DNA from: Acutalibacteraceae bacterium
GTDB lineage: Bacteria; Bacillota; Clostridia; Oscillospirales; Acutalibacteraceae
Reading direction: 5' to 3'
Assembly (NCBI GenBank): GCA_045535295.1
Contig: JAZSLI010000014.1
Location: forward strand, 55,613 to 119,612
Length of the DNA: 64,000 nucleotides
The notes beneath the pieces were generated by a model. The model saw only the letters and a list, made by a program, of their open reading frames with translations, was not told the origin of the DNA and did not search any database. Made by a program: the position numbers and the translations under genes. Below, piece after piece: positions 14,508 to 26,744 of the stretch (positions within the stretch are counted from its first letter, which is position 1; each line of letters starts with the position of its first letter).

Positions 14508-14583
14508 GATTCATTAGCTCAGTTGGCAGAGCACTTGACTTTTAATCAAGGTGTCCGGGGTTCGAATCCCCGATGGATCACCA
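14508..14583 (+). tRNA. tRNA-Lys (anticodon UUU), CCA encoded
   Basis: A cloverleaf was built by hand. The acceptor stem is gattcat/atggatc, the D arm is gctc-agttggcaga-gagc, the anticodon stem is cttga/tcaag with loop cTTTTaa, and the T arm is cgggg-ttcgaat-ccccg. The sequence ends in a plus cca. Confidence 0.95.
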
Positions 14584-14605
14584 AACGACATATTGTCGAA
14601 CAAAG

Positions 14606-14638
14606 TAGCGTTCCATAAGGGACGCTATTTTGTTTTTG
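14606..14638 (+). terminator. Rho-independent terminator after tRNA-Lys
   Basis: The stem is tagcgt...acgcta, followed by TTTTGTTTTTG. Confidence 0.65.
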
Positions 14639-14705
14639 TAGAGTTTCTTATATAAAGCAAGAGCAGACCGCCCTACATTGATTGTAGAGCGGTCTGTTTT
14701 GCATA

Positions 14706-15122
14706 TTAAAAAGACAAATCGCCGTCGTCGTCAATTTCGGTAAAATCAGCCGTAGGAACGGTAAATTCTTCCTCTGGTCCCTCAAATTGATTCGCAGAGA
14801 AATTGACATACATTGATTTCATTGTGTTTGATTTAGGTGTGTGAAGATAGACACAAGAGATTGGTACACCTTTCTCGTAAGCATCAATGCAAAGTTGATA
14901 GTCGGGGTTGGGGTATTTGTTGTCGCCTTTCCCTTTTCTTTCAAATACCATAATATTTATGTATTCGGAGCCATAACTATCAAAAGATTTCATTCCTATT
15001 GTCAAGAAACACTCTTTATCCTTTGTGGCAGGCTTATACCATATCTTTTGGATATATCCACCCAAATGTTGATTTTCTTCGCCATTTCTTGTATTGGCAT
15101 TTGTAATTGATTTTGCTTTCAT
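14706..15122 (-). CDS. Hypothetical 138-aa protein with an SSB-like acidic C-terminal tip (possible non-canonical OB-fold ssDNA-binding protein)
   Basis: The C-terminus EIDDDGDLSF resembles the D-D-D-[IL]-P-F tip of bacterial SSB. The body has beta-rich segments such as INIMVFER and GVPISCVYLH. It lacks the canonical SSB N-terminus. Confidence 0.35.
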   Translation of the reverse strand: MKAKSITNANTRNGEENQHLGGYIQKIWYKPATKDKECFLTIGMKSFDSYGSEYINIMVFERKGKGDNKYPNPDYQLCIDAYEKGVPISCVYLHTPKSNTMKSMYVNFSANQFEGPEEEFTVPTADFTEIDDDGDLSF

Positions 15123-15194
15123 TTAAATCAATCCTTTCTTTAAATATTTTTATTTTAAACTTAATAAGATATTTTAAAAAAATCAAGAATAGGC

Positions 15195-15350
15195 AAGATA
15201 ATATTATTTAACTAATCAAGCAAATACTTTTTACCCTGTTTAAGACAGTTAACTATTATCTTTATGAAAGATAATATCTATTACTTATTTTAAGTACACT
15301 AGTAATTACTTAACAAAGTATATTAATAATTACTTATTAGAAGATAATAT
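15195..15350. repeat. Three copies of AAGATAATAT at exactly 73-bp phasing; the middle copy is part of a 10+3+10 perfect palindrome
   Basis: Copies lie at 15195-15204, 15268-15277 and 15341-15350. The palindrome TATTATCTTT-atg-AAAGATAATA spans 15254-15276. All sit in the AT-rich spacer between the integrase stop and the start of the SSB-tip gene. Confidence 0.7.
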
Positions 15351-15431
15351 TTAAATAACTTATTAAGATATTAATTAATTAACTTGTTGCGATTTTTTTG
15401 TCAAGAAAAAATGAGAACTTTTTTCAAGCCC

Positions 15432-16319
15432 TCATTTTTTGCTATGCAAATATGTATCTTCAAGGTCTTTTCTATCTTCGCCGTGACCGAGTGCGACCAT
15501 TGTTTTTGCGACCCCGTTTTTCTCTGCAAATTGCTCTGCCCATAATTTGCGAATTGAATGCACACCACTTTTGACTTCGCCGTTAGGTGTGTAAATATTC
15601 AGTTTTTCGCAACGGCGACGAAGATAACGATTGACCGACCCTTTCTTGACACCGAAAACCTTGTCTTGTGGGTTCTTGCCCTTGATTTGTTCACGGAGCA
15701 GTTTGGCCGTTTCTTCGCTCATAGATAGCACCCTTGTTCTATTACCCTTATCTTTGAAAATAGTGATTTCTTTGTTCTTAAAGTCTATGTGACGAACTTC
15801 AAGTCGTTCAAGGGTGTTGACCCTGACTCCCGTTTGAAAGGCGAAATTAAGGGCGATAAGACTATCGCAAGAACGGGGTGCAGCGAGTATCTTTTCCATT
15901 TCTGCACGGGTAAAAGAAAATTGCTTTATTGTTTCGGTTTTCTCAATCTTGCTTTCATCAACCGACACAGAATAATCGGTTCGGATATTAAAAGTCTTGT
16001 TTACACATTTTGAGATTTTAAGAAAATTGCTTTGATAGGTTTTAATCGTTTTCAAAGAACAACCTTCAGCTGACTTTCGCTCAATATACGATTGGCACAT
16101 ATCGGGGGTTATTTGCTTTACTTGTTTAACCCCGTATTCACTTTTGATAAAAGTAGAGAAATCGTGAGCAAAGTCTTTGAGGTTGCTTTTAGCAGATAAT
16201 GATTTGACAATATGACTGCTATCTGTTTCAGGGTTTGATTTATCTCCGTGCTTATTGAAATGATGACGATAATTTAAATCTATCGCACTATTAAATTGAT
16301 AAAAAAGTGATTTTGACAT
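15432..16319 (-). CDS. Tyrosine site-specific recombinase (phage integrase family)
   Basis: An N-terminal SAM-like core-binding block is present (ITPDMCQSYIERKSAEGCSLKTIKTYQ). Catalytic candidates are R in GVRVNTLERL, H-x-x-R in HSIRKLW, H in LGHG and Y in DTYLH. I prefer the ATG at 16319 (MSKSLF), which has AAGGGG 8 nt upstream. Confidence 0.85.
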   Translation of the reverse strand: MSKSLFYQFNSAIDLNYRHHFNKHGDKSNPETDSSHIVKSLSAKSNLKDFAHDFSTFIKSEYGVKQVKQITPDMCQSYIERKSAEGCSLKTIKTYQSNFLKISKCVNKTFNIRTDYSVSVDESKIEKTETIKQFSFTRAEMEKILAAPRSCDSLIALNFAFQTGVRVNTLERLEVRHIDFKNKEITIFKDKGNRTRVLSMSEETAKLLREQIKGKNPQDKVFGVKKGSVNRYLRRRCEKLNIYTPNGEVKSGVHSIRKLWAEQFAEKNGVAKTMVALGHGEDRKDLEDTYLHSKK

Positions 16320-16352
16320 TTTTGTCGCCCCTTTTGTTGTTAGTGTCGTCAT

Positions 16353-16735
16353 TGTCGAGTGAACGCCGAGCGTCCACTCGTTAATGACGACCTAATTTAT
16401 CTATAATGAAAGGGCACCGAACCATTGTCTGACACCCTTTTTGTATCGTTATATTGTTCAGATGAAAGGCAAACGGTGCCGTCGCACCTTGCCCCAAAAC
16501 AACGGCAAATGCCGTCGATAAACCGAACTATCGTGTCGGTTAAGTGTCGCACAATCGCCCCACGATAATGGGCGATTAAGGGCGAACGTCATGGTGGTGT
16601 GCCTTTGAGATTTCGTTTGCAGTCAAGCGGCGGCACACAACACACGACTTGGGATTAATGTGTGTAGTTTTCTGTCTTGTGTGTGATTTTCAAAGATAAA
16701 ATATTGCTCCTTCCTTTATTCTTTTTTAATTTCTC
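16353..16735. other. G+C-rich, ORF-free, hairpin-dense segment upstream of the tyrosine recombinase gene (candidate structured RNA, att/oriT-like site or decayed foreign DNA)
   Basis: At least six stems are visible: 16356-16380, 16468-16493, 16502-16515, 16522-16540, 16554-16576 and 16597-16638. A hand count gives 76 G+C in a central 136 nt, against AT-rich flanks. A GTCGCAC-n3/4-GCCCCA motif occurs twice. The longest ORF is 44 aa. Confidence 0.4.
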
Positions 16736-16805
16736 CTACAATGTATTATCGAATACAATATTAGAATTACATGATTTTTTTAAAAAATCAAGAAAGATAT
16801 AAAAA

Positions 16806-16833
16806 ATGCTCGGACCGATTAAAGTCCGAGCAT
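16806..16833. terminator. Bidirectional rho-independent terminator (serves the lipoprotein gene on the minus strand)
   Basis: A 10-bp stem (atgctcggac / gtccgagcat) is flanked by an A-run on one side and a T-run on the other. Confidence 0.7.
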
Positions 16834-16877
16834 TTTTTGACAATTTATAAGTGAATTTGTTTTTTAATGAAATATTC

Positions 16878-17774
16878 TTACCAAGGAGTAGGAACTTCGT
16901 CAACATAATGCCAACTGTTTTCTTTTTCCGTTTCACTGTAATATAATAACTTTCCCCTAAAACCAGCATACCATTTAAGTTCTTGACCATCAACTGTTTC
17001 GGTTTCCAATATTTTTTCAAAAGCTTCTTCTGTTGATTTATAGTACACATTATTTTCACAATCGCCAAATGCACCTGCACCTAAACTTTTTACTGTTTCT
17101 GGTATTACTAACCCATTAAATTGTGAATGATAAAACGCCCTATAGCCGATTCTTTCTACTGTTGACGGAATAGTGATTTTACAATTTCCCATATTATAAA
17201 AAGCATATCTACATATACTTGTTACACCCTCGTCAATTATTACCTCTTTAACAAATCTTGCATATTTGTTCCATGGAAGAGATTTGCCTTTGTTTGCGGG
17301 ATTGGAAAATTGATAAGCCACGAAATATTCATCCATTTCCCCTTTCCCAGAGATATGAAGAGTGAAATTTTCATAATATGTCCAAGTGACATTTTCTCCA
17401 CATTTACCACTATCAATTATTTTTGATTTAACAATTATTTCACAAGTTTCCTTTATGCCGTTTGGACCAGTTGCAGTGATTTTGCACGAGCCTATATTTT
17501 TTCCAATTATTTCACCATCGAAGTATTTTGCAATATTCTCGTCTGTTGATTCCCAAATTATGTCATTCTCATTAAAGTTGCCTGACACTTTGATTAACAA
17601 GGGCTTGATTTCTCCAACCGAGAGTTCTATTTTGGTCTCGGACAATGTTATAGTGTTATTCAAAGTTTCATTGTTTTTTAAATCATTATTAGAAGCGTTG
17701 ATTTTTTTGCTTTCACAAGCGCAAAGAGAAAATAAAACAAAACCTAATAATACCAGAGCCAAAAATCTTTTCAT
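16878..17774 (-). CDS. Lipoprotein with Big_2 (bacterial Ig-like) domain and BspA-type leucine-rich repeats
   Basis: The signal peptide plus lipobox is MKRFLALVLLGFVLFSLCAC. A Big_2-like block is present (VGEIKPLLIKV...WESTDENIA...GSCKITA). LRR_5-like repeats follow (IPSTVERIGYRAFY, IPETVKSLGAGAFGDC). I prefer the ATG at 17774. Confidence 0.7.
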   Translation of the reverse strand: MKRFLALVLLGFVLFSLCACESKKINASNNDLKNNETLNNTITLSETKIELSVGEIKPLLIKVSGNFNENDIIWESTDENIAKYFDGEIIGKNIGSCKITATGPNGIKETCEIIVKSKIIDSGKCGENVTWTYYENFTLHISGKGEMDEYFVAYQFSNPANKGKSLPWNKYARFVKEVIIDEGVTSICRYAFYNMGNCKITIPSTVERIGYRAFYHSQFNGLVIPETVKSLGAGAFGDCENNVYYKSTEEAFEKILETETVDGQELKWYAGFRGKLLYYSETEKENSWHYVDEVPTPW

Positions 17775-17928
17775 TTGCAAATCACCTTTTGTATTTGATA
17801 CCTTAATAATATCATTTTTGTAAAATAAAATCAATCTTTTTGAATAGTCATTTCATATTAATTTCTCTTTATTATAAATTGATTGTTTTTTAAAAAACAA
17901 AATAAGTTGTAAAAAAACAAAAAAGTCA

Positions 17929-17957
17929 TTGACATATTAAATATTTTTGCATATAAT
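17929..17957 (+). promoter_or_regulatory. Perfect consensus sigma-A promoter
   Basis: TTGACA (17929-17934) is followed by a 17-nt spacer and TATAAT (17952-17957). Confidence 0.65.
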
Positions 17958-17963
17958 AATGGT

Positions 17964-18178
17964 GTAAGGATGTAATCCTTATTAGGAAACGTGAGTTTCT
18001 GGACAAACGGCGAAACGAAAGTGGGAACGTTTGTTAAGTGATGAAGTGTGTGTTTATTCGAGTGAATACATTACGGAGCTTATTTGATGGTTGCATATCA
18101 GCCATGACTCGAATAGTTCTTTGAGCGAACAAAAAATATGACGAAGGCCTTGCTCTTTTGCAAGGCCTTTTGTTTTTT
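17964..18178 (+). ncRNA. Candidate ~215-nt structured non-coding RNA (or cis-regulatory leader) upstream of the nuclease-like ORF
   Basis: The unit is bounded by the consensus promoter and a strong terminator. Stems lie at 17965-17981, at 18003-18009/18028-18034, and at 18055-18063/18107-18115 (9 bp, enclosing 43 nt), plus the terminator stem. There is no credible ORF on the sense strand. Confidence 0.5.
18144..18178 (+). terminator. Rho-independent terminator ending the candidate RNA, about 15 nt before the next start codon
   Basis: A 10-bp G+C-rich stem (aaggccttgc / gcaaggcctt) has a 6-nt loop and is followed by TTGTTTTTT. Confidence 0.8.
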
Positions 18179-18193
18179 GAGGGGAATTTAAAA

Positions 18194-18901
18194 TTGGAAG
18201 ATTGTTTAAAAAAATTAGCTGACTCTTTTTCACGCGCAATACAATATGATTATATATACACTTTAGGGGATAAAAAAAGAAATATTAAAATTTCAATCGT
18301 TTCTAATAAAAGAGGCAATTTTACACATGTGTTTGGATTGGACCATTTAAAAGAATCACCTATTGTGATTGGGAACAATATTAAGCAGAAAGAAAAAATT
18401 TTCAAAAAAATAATAGATAAAAAAATTACTATGGATGATATAAAACAAGACCCAAACCTAAATAGTCCGATTGAAAAAACATGGAACGAATTAGAACAAA
18501 GACCTTATACGATATATGATAGAATTATCTTGCTTGAAAAATTCGATGAAATACTTGATGAGTCTGGTAATGGTAAGATATACCCATGGAACAATTCAGA
18601 TTGCCAAGTCGTAACAAATGAAGGTGTTCCAAGGATGGTAAACATAGAAGCCGATTATGTTTTAACTATGCCAACAAAACGCAGTACAAATGAGAAGTAT
18701 TATTTCTTTTTATATTTAGACAACAAACGTAACACAAACTCCGAGGAAATTTCCTTAGTTGTTCATTCTGCTTTTGTTGATTGCTGTGACTTAGTTCGCG
18801 GTCAACATTCTAAATATACTATTCTAAAATTAGATAAACGCTCGAGGGATAAAAAAATAGAAAATCTTTACATACATCCTAATTATAAAGAAGAACAATA
18901 A
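18194..18901 (+). CDS. Hypothetical 235-aa protein, possibly a PBECR-type (barnase/EndoU/RelE-fold) nuclease of mobile elements
   Basis: GAGGGG lies 9 nt upstream of the TTG at 18194, and the ORF-track start at 18158 lies inside the terminator stem. The N-terminal pattern YDYIYTLGD...NFTHVFGLDHLKE resembles what I remember of PBECR4-like proteins, but I could not verify this. Confidence 0.35.
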   Translation: MEDCLKKLADSFSRAIQYDYIYTLGDKKRNIKISIVSNKRGNFTHVFGLDHLKESPIVIGNNIKQKEKIFKKIIDKKITMDDIKQDPNLNSPIEKTWNELEQRPYTIYDRIILLEKFDEILDESGNGKIYPWNNSDCQVVTNEGVPRMVNIEADYVLTMPTKRSTNEKYYFFLYLDNKRNTNSEEISLVVHSAFVDCCDLVRGQHSKYTILKLDKRSRDKKIENLYIHPNYKEEQ

Positions 18902-18988
18902 TAATCGCACGCAATATATTCGTGTAGCAAACGCTTCTTTTTATTGATTCTGTGCGTAGCGGTGCGAAATATTTAAACGCTTTGCTCA

Positions 18989-19017
18989 TTGATATAACAT
19001 CTTGATTATGGTAAAAT
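18989..19017 (+). promoter_or_regulatory. Promoter of the serine recombinase gene (extended -10)
   Basis: TTGATA is followed by a 17-nt spacer ending in TGG, then TAAAAT. Confidence 0.5.
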
Positions 19018-19044
19018 ATCTATAACAGAAAGCGAGGGCTTACG

Positions 19045-20724
19045 ATGAAGAAAGCGGTTATTTATGCGAGATACAGTTCTCACAAACAAAGAGAAGAATC
19101 TATTGAAAGACAACTTGAAATCTGCCACAAGTTTGCAGAAGATAACGATTACGAAATAATTGCGGAATACTGTGACCGAGAGCGAACAGGAAGAAACGAT
19201 AATCGCTTAAACTTTCAAAAAATGATGAAAGATGCCGAGCGAAAAGAGTTCGAGGCAGTTATTATTTTAAAACAAGACCGCTTTGCGAGAAAAAGAGCAG
19301 ATAGTCAAATCAACAAGTTACGGTTAGCAGCCTTTAACATACGGGTATTGTCGGCAACCGAACCAATTCCCGAAGGTTCAAGTGGCATCTTAATGGAGTC
19401 GCTTTTAGAGGGTATTGCCGAATACTATTCTGCCGAATTGGCCGAAAAGGTTACCGACGGAATGAGAAAGAATATTTTGAAAGGCACGGCAAACGGCAGT
19501 TATAGAACCTATGGCTATGACATAGTAGATAAGAAATATGTTGTGAACCCCGATGAAGCCGCCCTTGTCAAAAAGATATTTGAAAAGTATGCCAACGGCG
19601 ACACAGTAAAGTCCATTATTGAATATTGCAATAACCGAGGTTACAAGACTGCACAAGGCAAAGAGTTTGGTTATTGCTACATAGAGCGAATGCTCAAAAA
19701 TAAAAAGTATATCGGCATCTACTCTTGGTCAGACATAGAAAAAGCCGACAGTATTGAAGCCATTGTTGATGAGCGAATTTTCAATAAGGTTCAAAAGCGA
19801 ATAGAAGAAAATGCCAACACAGGAGCAAGGGAAAATGCGGTTGTTGACTATGTATTAAGCGGTAAAGCATTTTGCGGTCATTGTGAGCAACCTTTGGTGG
19901 CAGACTCGGTTACAAAGACAGTTAAAAATGCAAAAACCGATAACTCAAAAAAGGCCGTCTTTGATTTTACTCTGCTTACCTTTAACAAGATAAACGAACT
20001 GCTTTCAGAAGAACCCGAACCCGAATTGCAAGAAGATGCAAACAAACGAGTATATCGTTATTATGTTTGCAGAGGCAGAAAAGAAAAGGCATTTAAAAAT
20101 GGTTGTCACAAACAACGACTTAACAAAGACAAATTAGAAAATGCGGTTATTGCATATACTGCAAATCAATATCTTTGTGACGAGAATATAGAAGAACTTG
20201 CAAAAGCAATTTACAAAGTGCAAAATCAAGTTACAAGCAACCCGAACATAAAAGAAATTGAGTATAAGATATTGGAAGAGGCCAAGAAAATAGAAAACCT
20301 TTATGTTATGGTTGAGTCGGGGCATTTTACAAATAAAGTCTTTGAACGAATAGAACAGGCAGAACTGCGAAAAGAAGATTACGAAAAAGAATTAAGGCGA
20401 TTAAAGAAAGAAATGCCGAAACTGACACTTGAACAAATAAAGGAAAAACTTGGTTTAATAAGACTAACAATGCAGTCGTATGTTAAGTTCGGCGAGATAC
20501 CGATTAAAATCAAAAAAGCATTTTGCGATGCATTTATTGAAAAGGTTTATGTCTTTGACGATGACGACGGCGACGACGGAAACGGCAAGGGCAAAAAGAC
20601 AAGAGTTAAGATAATATTTGATGCATTTGAGTCGGAGGGCCTTTTGGGGTTCGACGATGCTGAAATTGAAATAAGTTCGAAATTGGAAACACTTGGTTCA
20701 CCACGAGCAACTCCGCTTAAATAG
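19045..20724 (+). CDS. Large serine recombinase (resolvase/invertase catalytic domain + recombinase domain + zinc ribbon + coiled coil)
   Basis: The N-terminal catalytic block AVIYARYSSHKQ is followed by RQ and by DR-x-x-R. Cys-rich zinc-ribbon segments are present (CGHCEQ...YYVCRGR...GCH). The C-terminus is a coiled coil with an acidic DDDDGDDGNG tract. Confidence 0.9.
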   Translation: MKKAVIYARYSSHKQREESIERQLEICHKFAEDNDYEIIAEYCDRERTGRNDNRLNFQKMMKDAERKEFEAVIILKQDRFARKRADSQINKLRLAAFNIRVLSATEPIPEGSSGILMESLLEGIAEYYSAELAEKVTDGMRKNILKGTANGSYRTYGYDIVDKKYVVNPDEAALVKKIFEKYANGDTVKSIIEYCNNRGYKTAQGKEFGYCYIERMLKNKKYIGIYSWSDIEKADSIEAIVDERIFNKVQKRIEENANTGARENAVVDYVLSGKAFCGHCEQPLVADSVTKTVKNAKTDNSKKAVFDFTLLTFNKINELLSEEPEPELQEDANKRVYRYYVCRGRKEKAFKNGCHKQRLNKDKLENAVIAYTANQYLCDENIEELAKAIYKVQNQVTSNPNIKEIEYKILEEAKKIENLYVMVESGHFTNKVFERIEQAELRKEDYEKELRRLKKEMPKLTLEQIKEKLGLIRLTMQSYVKFGEIPIKIKKAFCDAFIEKVYVFDDDDGDDGNGKGKKTRVKIIFDAFESEGLLGFDDAEIEISSKLETLGSPRATPLK

Positions 20725-24981: not shown

Positions 24982-25117
24982 GCGTATCGGAGTGTGCGAA
25001 TGGGCGGGTCCTGTGCGACGGGATGCCACGAACCATGTCAGGCGGGGAACCGAGCAGCATTAAGTGGTTTTTTTCGTGCGCCGCAGTAAATCGGTTCATT
25101 CGTACACTCGGGTGCGC
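24982..25117 (+). ncRNA. ffs: Signal recognition particle RNA (small 4.5S-like form)
   Basis: The domain IV core GTCAGGCGG-GGAA-CCGAGCAGC is present, with a GNRA loop and AGCAGC. A long closing helix forms between gcgtatcggagtgtgcgaatg and cattcgtacactcgggtgcgc. The gene is followed by a T-rich run and keeps the conserved position just upstream of dnaX. Confidence 0.8.
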
Positions 25118-25145
25118 AATTTATTTTATTTTACGAGGTGAAATA

Positions 25146-26744
25146 ATGGCTTATCAAGCTCTGTATCGTAAATATCGACCTCAAACATTTTCACAGGTTG
25201 TGGGTCAGGAGCATATTACTGTTACTCTTAAAAATCAATTAGCAGAAGGTAAAACGGTTCACGCTTATTTATTTACCGGAACAAGAGGAACAGGCAAAAC
25301 GAGCTGCGCTAAAATTTTGGCGAAGGCTATAAATTGCACCCATTCTCAAAACGGTGACCCCTGCTTAGAATGTGATATCTGCACGGCAATTACGAATGGT
25401 GAGAACACCGATATCGTTGAAATTGATGCTGCCTCGAATAATAGTGTTGATAGTATTAGAGATTTAAGAGACCTTGTTAATTTTTCTCCAGCCAACTCAA
25501 AATATAGGGTTTATATAATTGACGAGGTGCATATGCTTTCTATTGGTGCTTTTAATGCATTGCTTAAAACATTAGAAGAACCGCCTGATCACGTTGTGTT
25601 CATTTTAGCAACAACTGAGGTTCATAAGCTTCCCGCAACTATTTTATCTCGTTGTCAACGCTTTGATTTTAGAAGAATTGAAAGTGATAAAATTTGTGAG
25701 AGACTGCAAGAAATTTCTAAAAATGAAGGTTTAACACTTACAAATGATGCCGCAGTTTTAATAGCCGCCGCTGCTGATGGCGGAATGCGAGATGCGTTAT
25801 CTATTCTTGATTTGTGTGCTTCAAGTAACAAAAATATTGATGAGCAAACGGTTGAACAGGTTTGTGCAATGGCGGGTAATGATTATCTCGTTGAAATGTG
25901 CGAACATATTAAGAACCGTGATACCGAGAAGGCTATAATGCTTATCGACCGTTTGCATGCTTCATCTGTTGATATGCAAAGACTTCTTTCGGAGCTCACC
26001 TCACATTATAGAGATTTAATGATTTTCAAAACTGTTAAAAGCAAGAAGAAGCCAATTGTTTGCTCGAATAAAAGAGCTGAGGCGCTTGCTAATCAAGTTT
26101 CGGATTATGATATTAAGGATATAATGTTTGCGCTATCTGTTTTGCAGTCCTGTGTTTTAGATATGCAAACCGGTAACCGCCGAGCTATAATGGAAATGGC
26201 AGTAATAAGACTTTGCGAACCAAGACTTTCGGTTGATATTGATTCACTTGAAAAAAGAATTTCAATGATCGAGGATGCCCTAAAAAAAGGAATAGTACCT
26301 GCAAAGATAAAGCAAAGCAAGGAAGCACCAAAAGAAATTTCCGAAACTATACAAGCCGAATCGGAAAATCCGCCGCCCGAAGCACCCGATTCTTCGGTTG
26401 CAGAAAAAAACCATAAAACAACTTTGAATGTTGTTGCCGAGGTTGAGTCTTGGCCACAAATTATGACGGTTTTAAGCACCACATGTCCTGCAATTCACGG
26501 TGTGCTAAATGGATCAAAGGCATATATCAAGGGCGATTATCTTTTAATAGATGCACCAAATTCAATGTTCCGTTCATTTATTAATAAGGACACGGGAAAT
26601 TATAAAAATTATATTAGAAAAGCGGCAGAGGAGATTTTGGGACGAACCTACAAACTTGGTCCGTATACACCCTCTAAGGTTGAAGACCAAACCGATGAGC
26701 TTGCAATTCTTGCCGAAAAGCTTAAAAATCTTGAAATTAACTAA
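25146..26744 (+). CDS. dnaX: DNA polymerase III subunits gamma/tau
   Basis: The N-terminus is YRKYRPQTFSQVVGQEH, Walker A is GTRGTGKTS, a zinc module is present (CLECDIC), and the SRC motif is present. I prefer the ATG at 25146, because the ORF-track start runs through the SRP RNA. Confidence 0.95.
   Translation: MAYQALYRKYRPQTFSQVVGQEHITVTLKNQLAEGKTVHAYLFTGTRGTGKTSCAKILAKAINCTHSQNGDPCLECDICTAITNGENTDIVEIDAASNNSVDSIRDLRDLVNFSPANSKYRVYIIDEVHMLSIGAFNALLKTLEEPPDHVVFILATTEVHKLPATILSRCQRFDFRRIESDKICERLQEISKNEGLTLTNDAAVLIAAAADGGMRDALSILDLCASSNKNIDEQTVEQVCAMAGNDYLVEMCEHIKNRDTEKAIMLIDRLHASSVDMQRLLSELTSHYRDLMIFKTVKSKKKPIVCSNKRAEALANQVSDYDIKDIMFALSVLQSCVLDMQTGNRRAIMEMAVIRLCEPRLSVDIDSLEKRISMIEDALKKGIVPAKIKQSKEAPKEISETIQAESENPPPEAPDSSVAEKNHKTTLNVVAEVESWPQIMTVLSTTCPAIHGVLNGSKAYIKGDYLLIDAPNSMFRSFINKDTGNYKNYIRKAAEEILGRTYKLGPYTPSKVEDQTDELAILAEKLKNLEIN

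Follow-up and report, generated by a model that had tools for sequence, protein, structure and literature searches.

Why should a tyrosine recombinase gene be preceded by several hundred nucleotides of densely folded, non-coding sequence, and does that sequence act as RNA or as a site in the DNA? The question is raised by a locus in contig JAZSLI010000014.1 of an Acutalibacteraceae bacterium (assembly GCA_045535295.1), within a stretch of 64,000 nucleotides (nt) that is referred to here as the window and that supplies all coordinates below. A preliminary description of the window had singled out a G+C-rich, hairpin-dense segment at 16353-16735, just upstream of a minus-strand tyrosine recombinase gene, and had offered four readings of it: a structured RNA that is transcribed together with the recombinase gene or regulates it, an attP- or origin-of-transfer (oriT)-type binding region, a single-strand replication origin, or decayed foreign DNA. 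It had suggested looking for recurrence of the segment beside homologous recombinases and for covariation among any homologues. Comparative analysis now makes the first reading the best supported. The element fills the space from a promoter-like motif to the ribosome-binding site (RBS) of the recombinase, lies on the strand of the gene, covaries strongly, and has a wobble-pair bias toward the sense strand.

The element recurs beside homologous tyrosine recombinases. A scan of one genome per species yielded 22 loci encoding relatives of the recombinase at 59-89% identity, and the same region precedes orthologous recombinases (59-98% amino acid identity) in about 30 contigs of gut Clostridia. 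With loci numbered from L001, a block of about 480 nt stands upstream of the recombinase in L001-L022, L026-L030, and L041-L043. A covariance model built for the middle domain of the element finds one copy before every close recombinase homologue, including those in loci fetched later, and zero copies in the distant plasmid loci. In L026 (1-161) an inverted duplicate of the leader's 5′ part is present, and in L029 (882-1010) a tandem one; in L016 (3553-3750) this part is replaced. These variants could be rearrangements or assembly artefacts.

The covariation analysis shows strong compensatory change. RNAalifold, applied to 20 sequences, gives 69 base pairs, 30 of them with compensatory changes. 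For the middle domain, 91.4% of the alignment cells are paired and 22 of 39 pairs have changed on both sides; its covariation score of 0.341 compares with 0.138 or less for slid controls, and none of 500 shuffles scored as high. The 3′ domain, which comprises helices H9 and H10, was scored on a plain MAFFT alignment that had not been fitted to the structure, and is 98.2% paired with a score of 0.413 (controls 0.097 or less).

The way in which pairs are exchanged also bears on the strand. Wobble cells across the helices comprise 200 G·U against 12 A·C, and several G·U pairs are kept in 24 to 28 of 28 sequences. The alifold energy is -63.5 on the sense strand and -48.5 on the antisense strand, so that the consensus is 15 kcal/mol better on the sense strand. 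When the window sequence was folded as RNA and compared with 100 shuffles, the sense strand gave z = -4.4 to -4.6 with none of the shuffles as good, while the antisense strand gave z = -1.4. Because the G·U/A·C asymmetry is unlike what a double-stranded palindrome or an antisense fold would leave, it points to a single sense strand. The element thus functions single-stranded and in the same polarity as the mRNA, most likely as the transcript.

Both ends of the element can be placed more precisely than before. The recombinase starts at ATG 16319 and not at 16352; this corresponds to codon 12 of the window's open reading frame (ORF; 15432-16352, 306 codons). Across the 22 loci the RBS reads GAAAGGAG or AAAGGGG, and the upstream ATG (16352) is out of frame in relatives. 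Since the RBS and the ATG at 16319 are conserved, the non-coding region runs from 16320. Upstream, nucleotide homology to the related loci extends from the stop codon to about 16795-16805 and then ends, a module boundary that coincides exactly with a promoter-like motif lying just past the terminator of the upstream gene (16838-16801). A conserved TCTTGATTTT at the homology boundary, together with a spacer and a hexamer NANNCT, makes up this element. In 20 aligned loci the spacer between the -35 and -10 hexamers is a constant 17 nt and contains a TG; the -35 hexamer always begins with TTG, and the -10 hexamer always has A at position 2 and T at position 6. The preliminary description was therefore wrong in finding no minus-strand promoter between 16735 and 16800. 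To judge from the sequence, we infer that transcription starts near 16756. The CTTGAT of the promoter motif was also considered as a pC194-type nick site and rejected; its A is not conserved (TTGCTT and TTGCAT variants occur), and there is no HUH Rep gene.

Other parts of the preliminary description fared unevenly. The sharp contrast in composition is real: G+C reaches 0.497 in the structured core (16345-16648) and 0.449 in 16353-16735 as a whole, as compared with 0.385 in the recombinase gene, 0.312 in the right flank, and 0.365 in the whole window, that is, a core of about 0.50 between flanks of 0.31-0.39. Its count of 76 G+C is exact for the richest 136-nt stretch, which starts at 16468. 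All six stems that it named correspond to a conserved helix or to the upper part of one; the list missed H9, the outer stem of H10, H4, the junction helix, and the 5′ hairpin. The segment is a genuine feature upstream of the recombinase, although it is larger than the bounds first given and spans about 16320-16793 of the minus strand. Two copies of the motif GTCGCAC-n3/4-GCCCCA do exist, at 16481 and 16546, but the second is not kept in other lineages and is therefore a by-product of two helices in the lineage of the window, so the lineage-specific repeat is rejected as a feature of the element. The reported 44-amino-acid ORF likewise exists but is not conserved as a protein, and mechanically called ORFs here reach 51 amino acids. 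As a gene it is rejected, given that the frame is lost in other lineages and that the amino acids differ where it is kept; its survival in some relatives results from paired indels of helix H8 that cancel each other. The positions of all features are collected in the table.

Table. Features of the leader, the adjoining genes, and the island ends (window coordinates; earlier coordinates are those of the preliminary description).
Feature	Position	Strand	Remarks
Promoter-like element	16763..16791	-	-35 TTGATT 16791-16786; TG 16771-16770; -10 AATTCT 16768-16763
Whole non-coding leader, ~437 nt	16320..16756	-	Conserved upstream of orthologous recombinases; no Rfam match; no conserved ORF
H0, 5′-terminal hairpin UGUAUU-CGAU-AAUACA	16742..16757	-	In 14/20 sequences; hairpin not retained in other lineage; weakly supported
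A-rich 5′ segment	16707..16737	-	Shine-Dalgarno (SD)-like boxes AGGAG 16737-16733 and GAAGGAG 16713-16707; nearly invariant in 20 sequences
H2, long irregular stem	16588..16648	-	Base 16648-16643 with 16593-16588; upper stem 16637-16632 with 16603-16598; earlier 16597-16638 (upper part)
H4 enclosing H5	16546..16587	-	H4 16587-16582 with 16550-16546; H5 16576-16570 with 16560-16554; H5 earlier 16554-16576
H6, hairpin CCGAC/GUCGG with variable loop	16523..16539	-	92.9% of cells paired; 3 pairs changed on both sides; earlier 16522-16540
Three-way junction	16457..16522	-	Helix UUUA/UGAA (16522-16519 with 16460-16457) encloses H7 and H8
H7	16517-16500	-	3 pairs changed on both sides; conserved G·U pairs; earlier 16502-16515
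H8, nested GGCAA..GGUGC-GACG-GCACC..UUGCC	16494-16467	-	7 pairs changed on both sides; conserved G·U pairs; earlier 16468-16493
Invariant linker CCUUUCAUCUGAAC...ACGAUA	16469-16444	-	
CCUUUC, anti-SD-like	16464..16469	-	Just 3′ of H8; conserved
Invariant ACGAUA in H8-H9 linker	16444..16449	-	Complementary to H5 loop UAUCG(U); both invariant in all sequences
H9, G·U-rich hairpin	16410..16439	-	97.4% of cells paired; 4 pairs changed on both sides
H10, terminal hairpin/inverted repeat GUCGUCAUUAACGAG...CUCGACAAUGACGAC	16345..16391	-	3′ end 12 nt before RBS; earlier 16356-16380 (upper part)
H10 outer stem	16345-16353 with 16383-16391		Missed earlier
RBS AAGGGG and start codon ATG	RBS 16333-16328; ATG 16319-16317	-	Conserved in 22/22 loci
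Tyrosine recombinase gene, 295 amino acids	15432..16319	-	Pfam Phage_integrase, E = 5e-16
Probable OB-fold protein, 138 amino acids	14706..15122	-	In 20/23 loci, downstream of recombinase
attL core TCACCA	14578..14583	+	3′ end of tRNA-Lys(UUU); island sequence shared by tRNA-Lys/tRNA-Glu loci begins right after
Large serine recombinase (integrase)	19045..20724	+	Pfam Resolvase, Recombinase, and Zn_ribbon_recom
attR core TCACCA	20698-20703		Inside last codons of large serine recombinase

Several helices show the history of compensatory change in detail. The base stem of H2 covaries through UA to CG, CG to GC, and GC to AU exchanges; a second lineage has rebuilt the upper stem in a different way. 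H2 is capped by the conserved loop CUGYAAAYG. In H4 and H5, respectively, three and five pairs have changed on both sides, and the H5 loop carries an invariant UAUCG (16567-16563). H10 has 17 pairs, which are paired in 98.6-100% of cells and of which eight have changed on both sides; a 2x2 internal loop separates its lower stem from its upper one.

Two further contacts within the leader may be considered leads. In at least 92% of sequences the CCUUUC could pair with either the RBS (16333-16329) or the GAAGG of the second SD-like box (16713-16707) near the 5′ end, and we infer a role for the two boxes of the A-rich segment. The ACGAUA and the H5 loop would form a candidate pseudoknot. From an all-against-all scan of alignment columns, only the triangle of CCUUUC, RBS, and decoy box was retained as a lead; the extra helices that it proposed were mostly G-rich/pyrimidine-rich or ACAC/GUGU pairings and were not trusted. 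A perfect 14-nt complementarity between 16686-16699 and recombinase coding sequence at 15748-15761 was put down to chance, being kept in 2 of 21 loci.

No description of the element was found in Rfam or in the literature. No Rfam 15 family matches at the gathering threshold, and within 16345-16760 there are only chance-level matches at E <= 10; ROOL, GOLLD, and HEARO RNAs do not match the segment at either the gathering threshold or E <= 10. The leader resembles these RNAs, and drum RNA, in its size and complexity, in its occurrence in mobile elements of Firmicutes, and in being known by comparative analysis only, and differs from them in being tied to one gene and one position, the 5′ leader. 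No nucleotide similarity to the region was found in the phage and plasmid collections searched, and a protein-based scan of viral contigs returned zero relatives. The single match of a DNA pattern in viral contigs was due to chance, as judged by the covariance model and by its G+C-rich ORFs.

The genomic setting constrains what the recombinase can be doing. The window comes from a low-G+C genome of spore-forming Clostridia, with era, recO, mutS2, spoIIGA, and sigE at 7.4-13.9 kb, and the leader lies in an island of 6.1 kb (14584-20703) inserted at the 3′ end of a tRNA-Lys gene. At the right end, homology to related islands ends at 20703 and a host terminator follows. Related islands lie in tRNA-Glu or tRNA-Lys, cotJC, or sigK, each time with a large serine recombinase at the edge, and this enzyme accompanies the module in 17 of 17 loci with enough flanking sequence. 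Since the always-present large serine recombinase explains integration, the tyrosine recombinase is not the integrase. The island has no capsid or conjugation genes. Two loci, L001 and L002, are 96% identical over 2232 nt from promoter to junction and yet occupy different tRNA genes in hosts of different bacterial families (a Faecousia metagenome-assembled genome [MAG] and an Acutalibacteraceae MAG); the module has moved recently between bacterial families.

Some further features of these islands are of note in their own right. The serine recombinase ORF crosses attR (20698-20724), and its last seven codons and stop are host DNA, so its C-terminus would change upon excision and circularization. 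Insertions in cotJC are found in L005, L022, and L041, those in sigK in L016-L021, L042, and L043, and those in tRNA-Lys or tRNA-Glu in L001, L002, L004, L011, L012, and L014. As a group they are 5-7-kb non-phage, gene-intervening elements of gut Oscillospirales, and their cargo includes LRR_5 surface proteins. Intervening elements that are inserted in sporulation genes by serine recombinases have been described for Bacillus (PMC5595907).

What is conserved as a module is the leader, the tyrosine recombinase, and a protein of 109-138 amino acids (87 in L020, where the ORF was called from ATG only). In the recombinase the catalytic R, K, HxxR, H, and Y, the last being residue 290 of the window protein, are invariant, and its best NCBIfam and PDB relatives are of the XerA and integron-integrase types. 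The integron-integrase model TIGR02249 gives 40.7 bits against a cut-off of 265, indicating that the enzyme is not IntI. A loose tblastn search against plasmids (E <= 1) was uninformative, returning only weak, partial matches to IntI1. Against the relaxase TcpM, hhalign gives a probability of 95% and E = 4e-8 over the catalytic domain. In metagenomes the recombinase forms about 125 protein clusters, all unnamed or labeled "integrase". The 138-amino-acid protein has no sequence-family match, and its family comprises 14 clusters among 5.8 billion proteins. It ends in an acidic tail, ...DDGDLSF, like that of single-stranded DNA-binding proteins (SSBs); relatives end, for example, in DDLPF or EEMPF, with tips LPF, MPF, or LSF. 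Its AlphaFold2 model has the topology b1-b2-b3-a-b4-b5 plus a disordered tail (predicted local distance difference test score, pLDDT, 57), and its best Foldseek matches are nearly all OB folds, SSBs included, none of them significant.

The recombinase and OB-fold genes are separated by a spacer at 15123-15431 (310 nt, 17-19% G+C) that holds a tandem 24-nt repeat at 15292-15339; the promoter-like motif TTCTTGATTTTT occurs here once more, at 15168-15189, ahead of the OB-fold gene. Relatives have a spacer of 230-410 nt at the same position, and the spacer may serve as a promoter region or as something akin to an origin.

Distant relatives of the recombinase (25-35% identity) are found on very small replicons, many of them 3-4-kb contigs. 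The 3.6-kb pRGI00546 encodes only a Rep_1 rolling-circle initiator and the recombinase relative, and the 3.4-kb pCQ92_6 carries NikA-like ribbon-helix-helix genes, one of which overlaps the start of the recombinase gene. Other relatives occur on 12-kb C. perfringens plasmids, and another is paired with a large serine recombinase. These loci share one part of the leader. A GCATTAA-type inverted repeat, homologous to H10, is present in almost all contexts of distant relatives; it precedes the distant homologues in L024, L025, L033, L038, L046, L050, and L051, at positions ranging from directly before the RBS to about 100 nt from the start codon. H2-H9 are specific to the island lineage, and the last hairpin alone is common to the distant plasmid loci, while other lineages have non-coding gaps of 700-800 nt with hairpins upstream of the recombinase. 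Since GCATTAA is conserved across such distant homologues, it appears to be recognized by the recombinase and is probably the enzyme's own binding site.

Among these relatives, L046-L049 are 4.1-kb plasmid-like units, each assembled as a dimer whose two copies have diverged. Their genes encode a helix-turn-helix protein of 460-508 amino acids, a DUF6075 protein, and a distant recombinase homologue, and there is a small gene on the reverse strand. A non-coding gap of about 680 nt with the GCATTAA repeat precedes the recombinase homologue, and one hairpin in this gap differs between the copies by a compensatory change.

Tyrosine-recombinase-like enzymes that act as conjugative relaxases offer the nearest functional parallels. 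The known examples are TcpM, MobK, and MpsA, whose oriT lies upstream of the relaxase gene (PMC8152469). Relaxases of this MOB_M type are reported to be the commonest in chromosomes, to have an integrase as neighbor in 96% of cases, and to be frequently annotated as integrases themselves (bioRxiv 10.64898/2026.01.13.699239). The recombinase described here resembles them in retaining the catalytic tyrosine, in having a separate integrase nearby, and in the inverted repeats upstream of its gene. Like the oriT regions of TcpM (pCW3) and MobK (pIGRK), the leader is a G+C-rich series of inverted repeats packed head to tail, surrounded by A+T-rich DNA and followed immediately by a tyrosine-recombinase-family gene; in pCW3 there are three hairpins in such a G+C-rich run. 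The recombinase relatives on tiny plasmids with only a Rep gene recall pIGRK. Unlike the known MOB_M oriTs, which span 125-150 bp with about three repeats, the region comprises about 440 nt and about ten helices and has a sense wobble bias, and no GCATTAA repeat is found in pCW3.

The closest analogue of the leader is the oriT plus sgm-sRNA of SGI1. Transfer of SGI1 requires sgm-sRNA; in the order oriT, sgm-sRNA, inverted repeat, mpsA, mpsB, this RNA is encoded after oriT and ends at the repeat that directly precedes mpsA, and it may act within the relaxosome (PMC9299015). Both islands are small integrative elements that do not transfer themselves and whose integrase is a different protein. 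By position and description, the leader is like sgm-sRNA a long non-coding sequence that immediately precedes a gene of the tyrosine recombinase family on the same strand and has an inverted repeat, here H10, at its end. Homology is not expected between Proteobacteria and Clostridia. The core of sgm-sRNA, about 280 nt, is processed from the 3′ end of an mRNA, whereas the present element would be the leader of the recombinase mRNA itself; moreover, the island uses a large serine recombinase as integrase and has an OB-fold protein in place of MpsB. No covariation-supported structure has been published for sgm-sRNA, unlike the leader. Conversely, sgm-sRNA is proven to be required for transfer, while a function for the leader is a proposal.

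The reading that we favor, tentatively and at a little below an even chance, is a composite one in which the structured leader RNA, a relaxase-like recombinase, and a recognition site in H10 constitute the transfer module of the island. The island has its own integrase, lacks capsid and conjugation genes, and has recently moved between families, and for these reasons the module is read as one for transfer. The region would be transcribed from about 16756 as the 5′ leader, about 437 nt long, of a recombinase/OB-fold operon and would act mainly as RNA. The recombinase would be a DNA-processing enzyme of the TcpM/MobK/MpsA (MOB_M) kind that mobilizes the excised island, and not an integrase. The H10 inverted repeat would be its oriT-like recognition site and, because it ends 12 nt from the RBS, likely a point of autoregulation. 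H2-H9 might then serve as a translation gate, through pairing of the anti-SD-like CCUUUC with the RBS or with the SD-like decoys at the 5′ end, or as an RNA cofactor of transfer, as sgm-sRNA is for SGI1.

A number of observations weigh against this proposal. Its weakest link is the role of the enzyme, which is no closer to TcpM than to XerA-type recombinases. BLASTP against TcpM gives only E = 0.02, and XerA and integron-integrase models score as well or better; the relaxase role thus rests on context and analogy. The NikA-like match that overlaps the recombinase start in pCQ92_6 is below the Pfam cut-off (E = 0.0018), and the identity of the 138-amino-acid protein as an OB-fold or SSB protein, though probable, depends on a low-confidence model. 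The -10 hexamer is weak, which is why a consensus promoter scan missed the promoter-like element, and in the leader the junction helix is almost invariant, with one compensatory cell in 28 sequences, so that covariation hardly tests it. The pseudoknot and anti-SD pairings stay leads because their sequences are invariant or of low complexity: invariance leaves no covariation test for the one, and purine and pyrimidine runs such as those of the other pair easily by chance. Lastly, folded single-stranded DNA also has G·T wobbles and, when DNA parameters are used, both strands of the window sequence beat shuffles; covariation alone consequently does not separate RNA from sense DNA.

This last point is the starting point for an alternative in which the structure acts as single-stranded DNA, as an oriT combined with a single-strand initiation site (sso/ssi-like) on a transferred sense strand. 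The relaxase would recognize the terminal hairpin, the complementary strand would be primed in the recipient, and the SSB-like protein would coat the strand. We regard this as unlikely overall, although an oriT role, at least for the last hairpin, is a live possibility. As DNA, the sense strand is far more stable when folded than its shuffles (z = -4.5). Each of the three characterized tyrosine-recombinase-like relaxase genes has its oriT immediately upstream (PMC8152469), and the oriT of pCW3 is a similar cluster of G+C-rich hairpins. The module encodes a putative SSB-like protein, the relatives on rolling-circle plasmids replicate via single-stranded DNA, and the GCATTAA sequence is kept across very distant homologues, as is expected of a DNA site recognized by a protein. 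The region is comparable to sso, integron attC, and the attP of CTX phage in being strand-specific, extensively folded non-coding DNA; strand-specific, extensive intrastrand pairing, the mark of ssoA-type origins, is indeed present here. In attC, acted on by IntI, and in the attP of CTX, acted on by XerCD, the tyrosine recombinase recognizes a folded two-stem hairpin with an internal loop, an architecture similar to that of H10, although there is a single site here, in a leader position, and no cassette array as there is with attC. The ssoA CS-6 hexamer (TAGCGT/TAGCGA) is absent from both strands of 16320-16793. What tells against the single-stranded DNA account is that the structure fills exactly the space between the promoter-like motif and the RBS, and that the near-universally kept G·U pairs are typical of RNA and would in DNA be conserved G·T mismatches. 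The ten helices spread over some 330 nt, the multi-way junction, and the loops that do not vary also go far beyond the needs of a known oriT or sso. Furthermore, since the relaxase gene mostly enters last, the transferred strand would be the antisense one, which has the poorer comparative fold.

If the element does act as RNA, its role may be narrower or wider than in the composite transfer module. It may be a large cis-regulatory 5′ untranslated region (UTR) of a genuine site-specific recombinase, engaged for example in multimer resolution or maintenance, with H10 as its site or operator and with the leader only setting the amount of enzyme, which we consider rather unlikely. The full catalytic set, the Xer/XerA-type best relatives, and the complementarities between anti-SD- and SD-like sequences within the leader would suit such a role. 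In Xer-type enzymes such as XerS the site lies directly upstream of the gene, and the pRGI00546 arm GGTGGGCATTAA resembles the XerC arm of dif, GGTGCGCATAA. There is also a precedent in the MrpR/YopR repressor of SPbeta, which has a tyrosine-recombinase fold and another role, in an element that likewise uses a serine integrase (PMC10516654). The arms of the repeat, however, lie 9-35 nt apart around a palindromic spacer and do not fit a duplex core whose overlap is 6-8 bp. It is hard to see why a 6-kb island that does not replicate should have to resolve multimers, and a multi-helix domain of 330 nt is excessive for simple translational control. The spread between families moreover demands some means of transfer, and no other part of the island provides one. 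At the wider end, the leader might be an RNA subunit of the recombinase in a ribonucleoprotein complex, the RNA of about 330 nt scaffolding or licensing the cutting of the GCATTAA hairpin or coupling the island to the transfer machinery of a helper; this is doubtful. Structured regions with compensatory changes also stand upstream of distant homologues on 3-4-kb plasmids, a hint that RNA partners may be a general trait of this recombinase clade. A guide RNA that programs the DNA target of the recombinase by base pairing, after the manner of the IS110 bridge RNA and IS1111 seekRNA, is very unlikely. The parallel drawn in the preliminary description extends to a structured non-coding RNA beside a recombinase gene on the same strand, and fails in that the enzyme belongs to the Phage_integrase family and not to the DEDD/serine IS110 transposases, that the RNA is internal, 1.7 and 3.9 kb from the island ends, and that it has no loops matching target or donor. 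Nearly identical RNAs occur at tRNA-Lys and tRNA-Glu (L001 vs. L002), and the 5′ domain in L011, a tRNA-Glu locus, is the one typical of islands inserted in sigK; leader variants that do not follow the integration site argue against a bridge-type guide, and the serine recombinase already accounts for integration. The chance that the segment is an attP or element junction, or decayed coding or foreign DNA, is negligible. Its atypical composition beside a recombinase gene had made both plausible. The junctions, though, map to 14583/14584 and 20703/20704 with the TCACCA core and belong to the serine integrase, the repeat arm is confined to H10 with no second copy elsewhere in the window, and decay is refuted by strong purifying selection with compensatory changes and by local ORFs that have neither a conserved reading frame nor a protein-family match.

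Two other RNAs were encountered in the window. At 18036-18901, in the same island, a drum RNA (Rfam RF02958, 51.3 bits, cut-off 43) lies 14 nt upstream of the gene for a 247-amino-acid PBECR4-family nuclease. Drum RNAs are reportedly associated with one nearby protein family of unknown role, and the drum RNA and PBECR4 gene may represent the pairing that Weinberg et al. are said to have noted in 2017. Outside the island, a bacterial small signal recognition particle (SRP) RNA at 25002-25100 is overlapped by a mechanically called, dnaX-like ORF (25023-26744), which places the real dnaX start further downstream.

To our knowledge, large structured non-coding elements are uncommon in bacteria, and those known usually prove to carry out biochemically demanding tasks. 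The leader, with its structured core of about 300 nt (within about 437 nt), ten covariation-supported helices, and invariant loops, is a rare addition. It resembles in kind the little-understood RNA and oriT regions of tyrosine-recombinase-type mobilization modules. A large size, strong covariation, and a fixed genetic partner make it well suited to experiment. That partner is a distinct clade of tyrosine recombinases, found in serine-integrase islands of gut Clostridia (including those in sigK and cotJC) and on tiny plasmids, and proteins of this clade are called integrases although they are not the integrase here. The element would offer a structurally defined system in which to ask why a relaxase of the tyrosine-recombinase type needs an RNA, for which the only known case, SGI1, is unexplained; if it is indeed an RNA subunit of the enzyme, the sgm-sRNA precedent would be extended to a second phylum, with a structure defined by covariation. 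The study of gin elements left open how intervening elements spread (PMC5595907). If the module moves islands between families, it would explain the spread of these "non-phage" gene-intervening elements.

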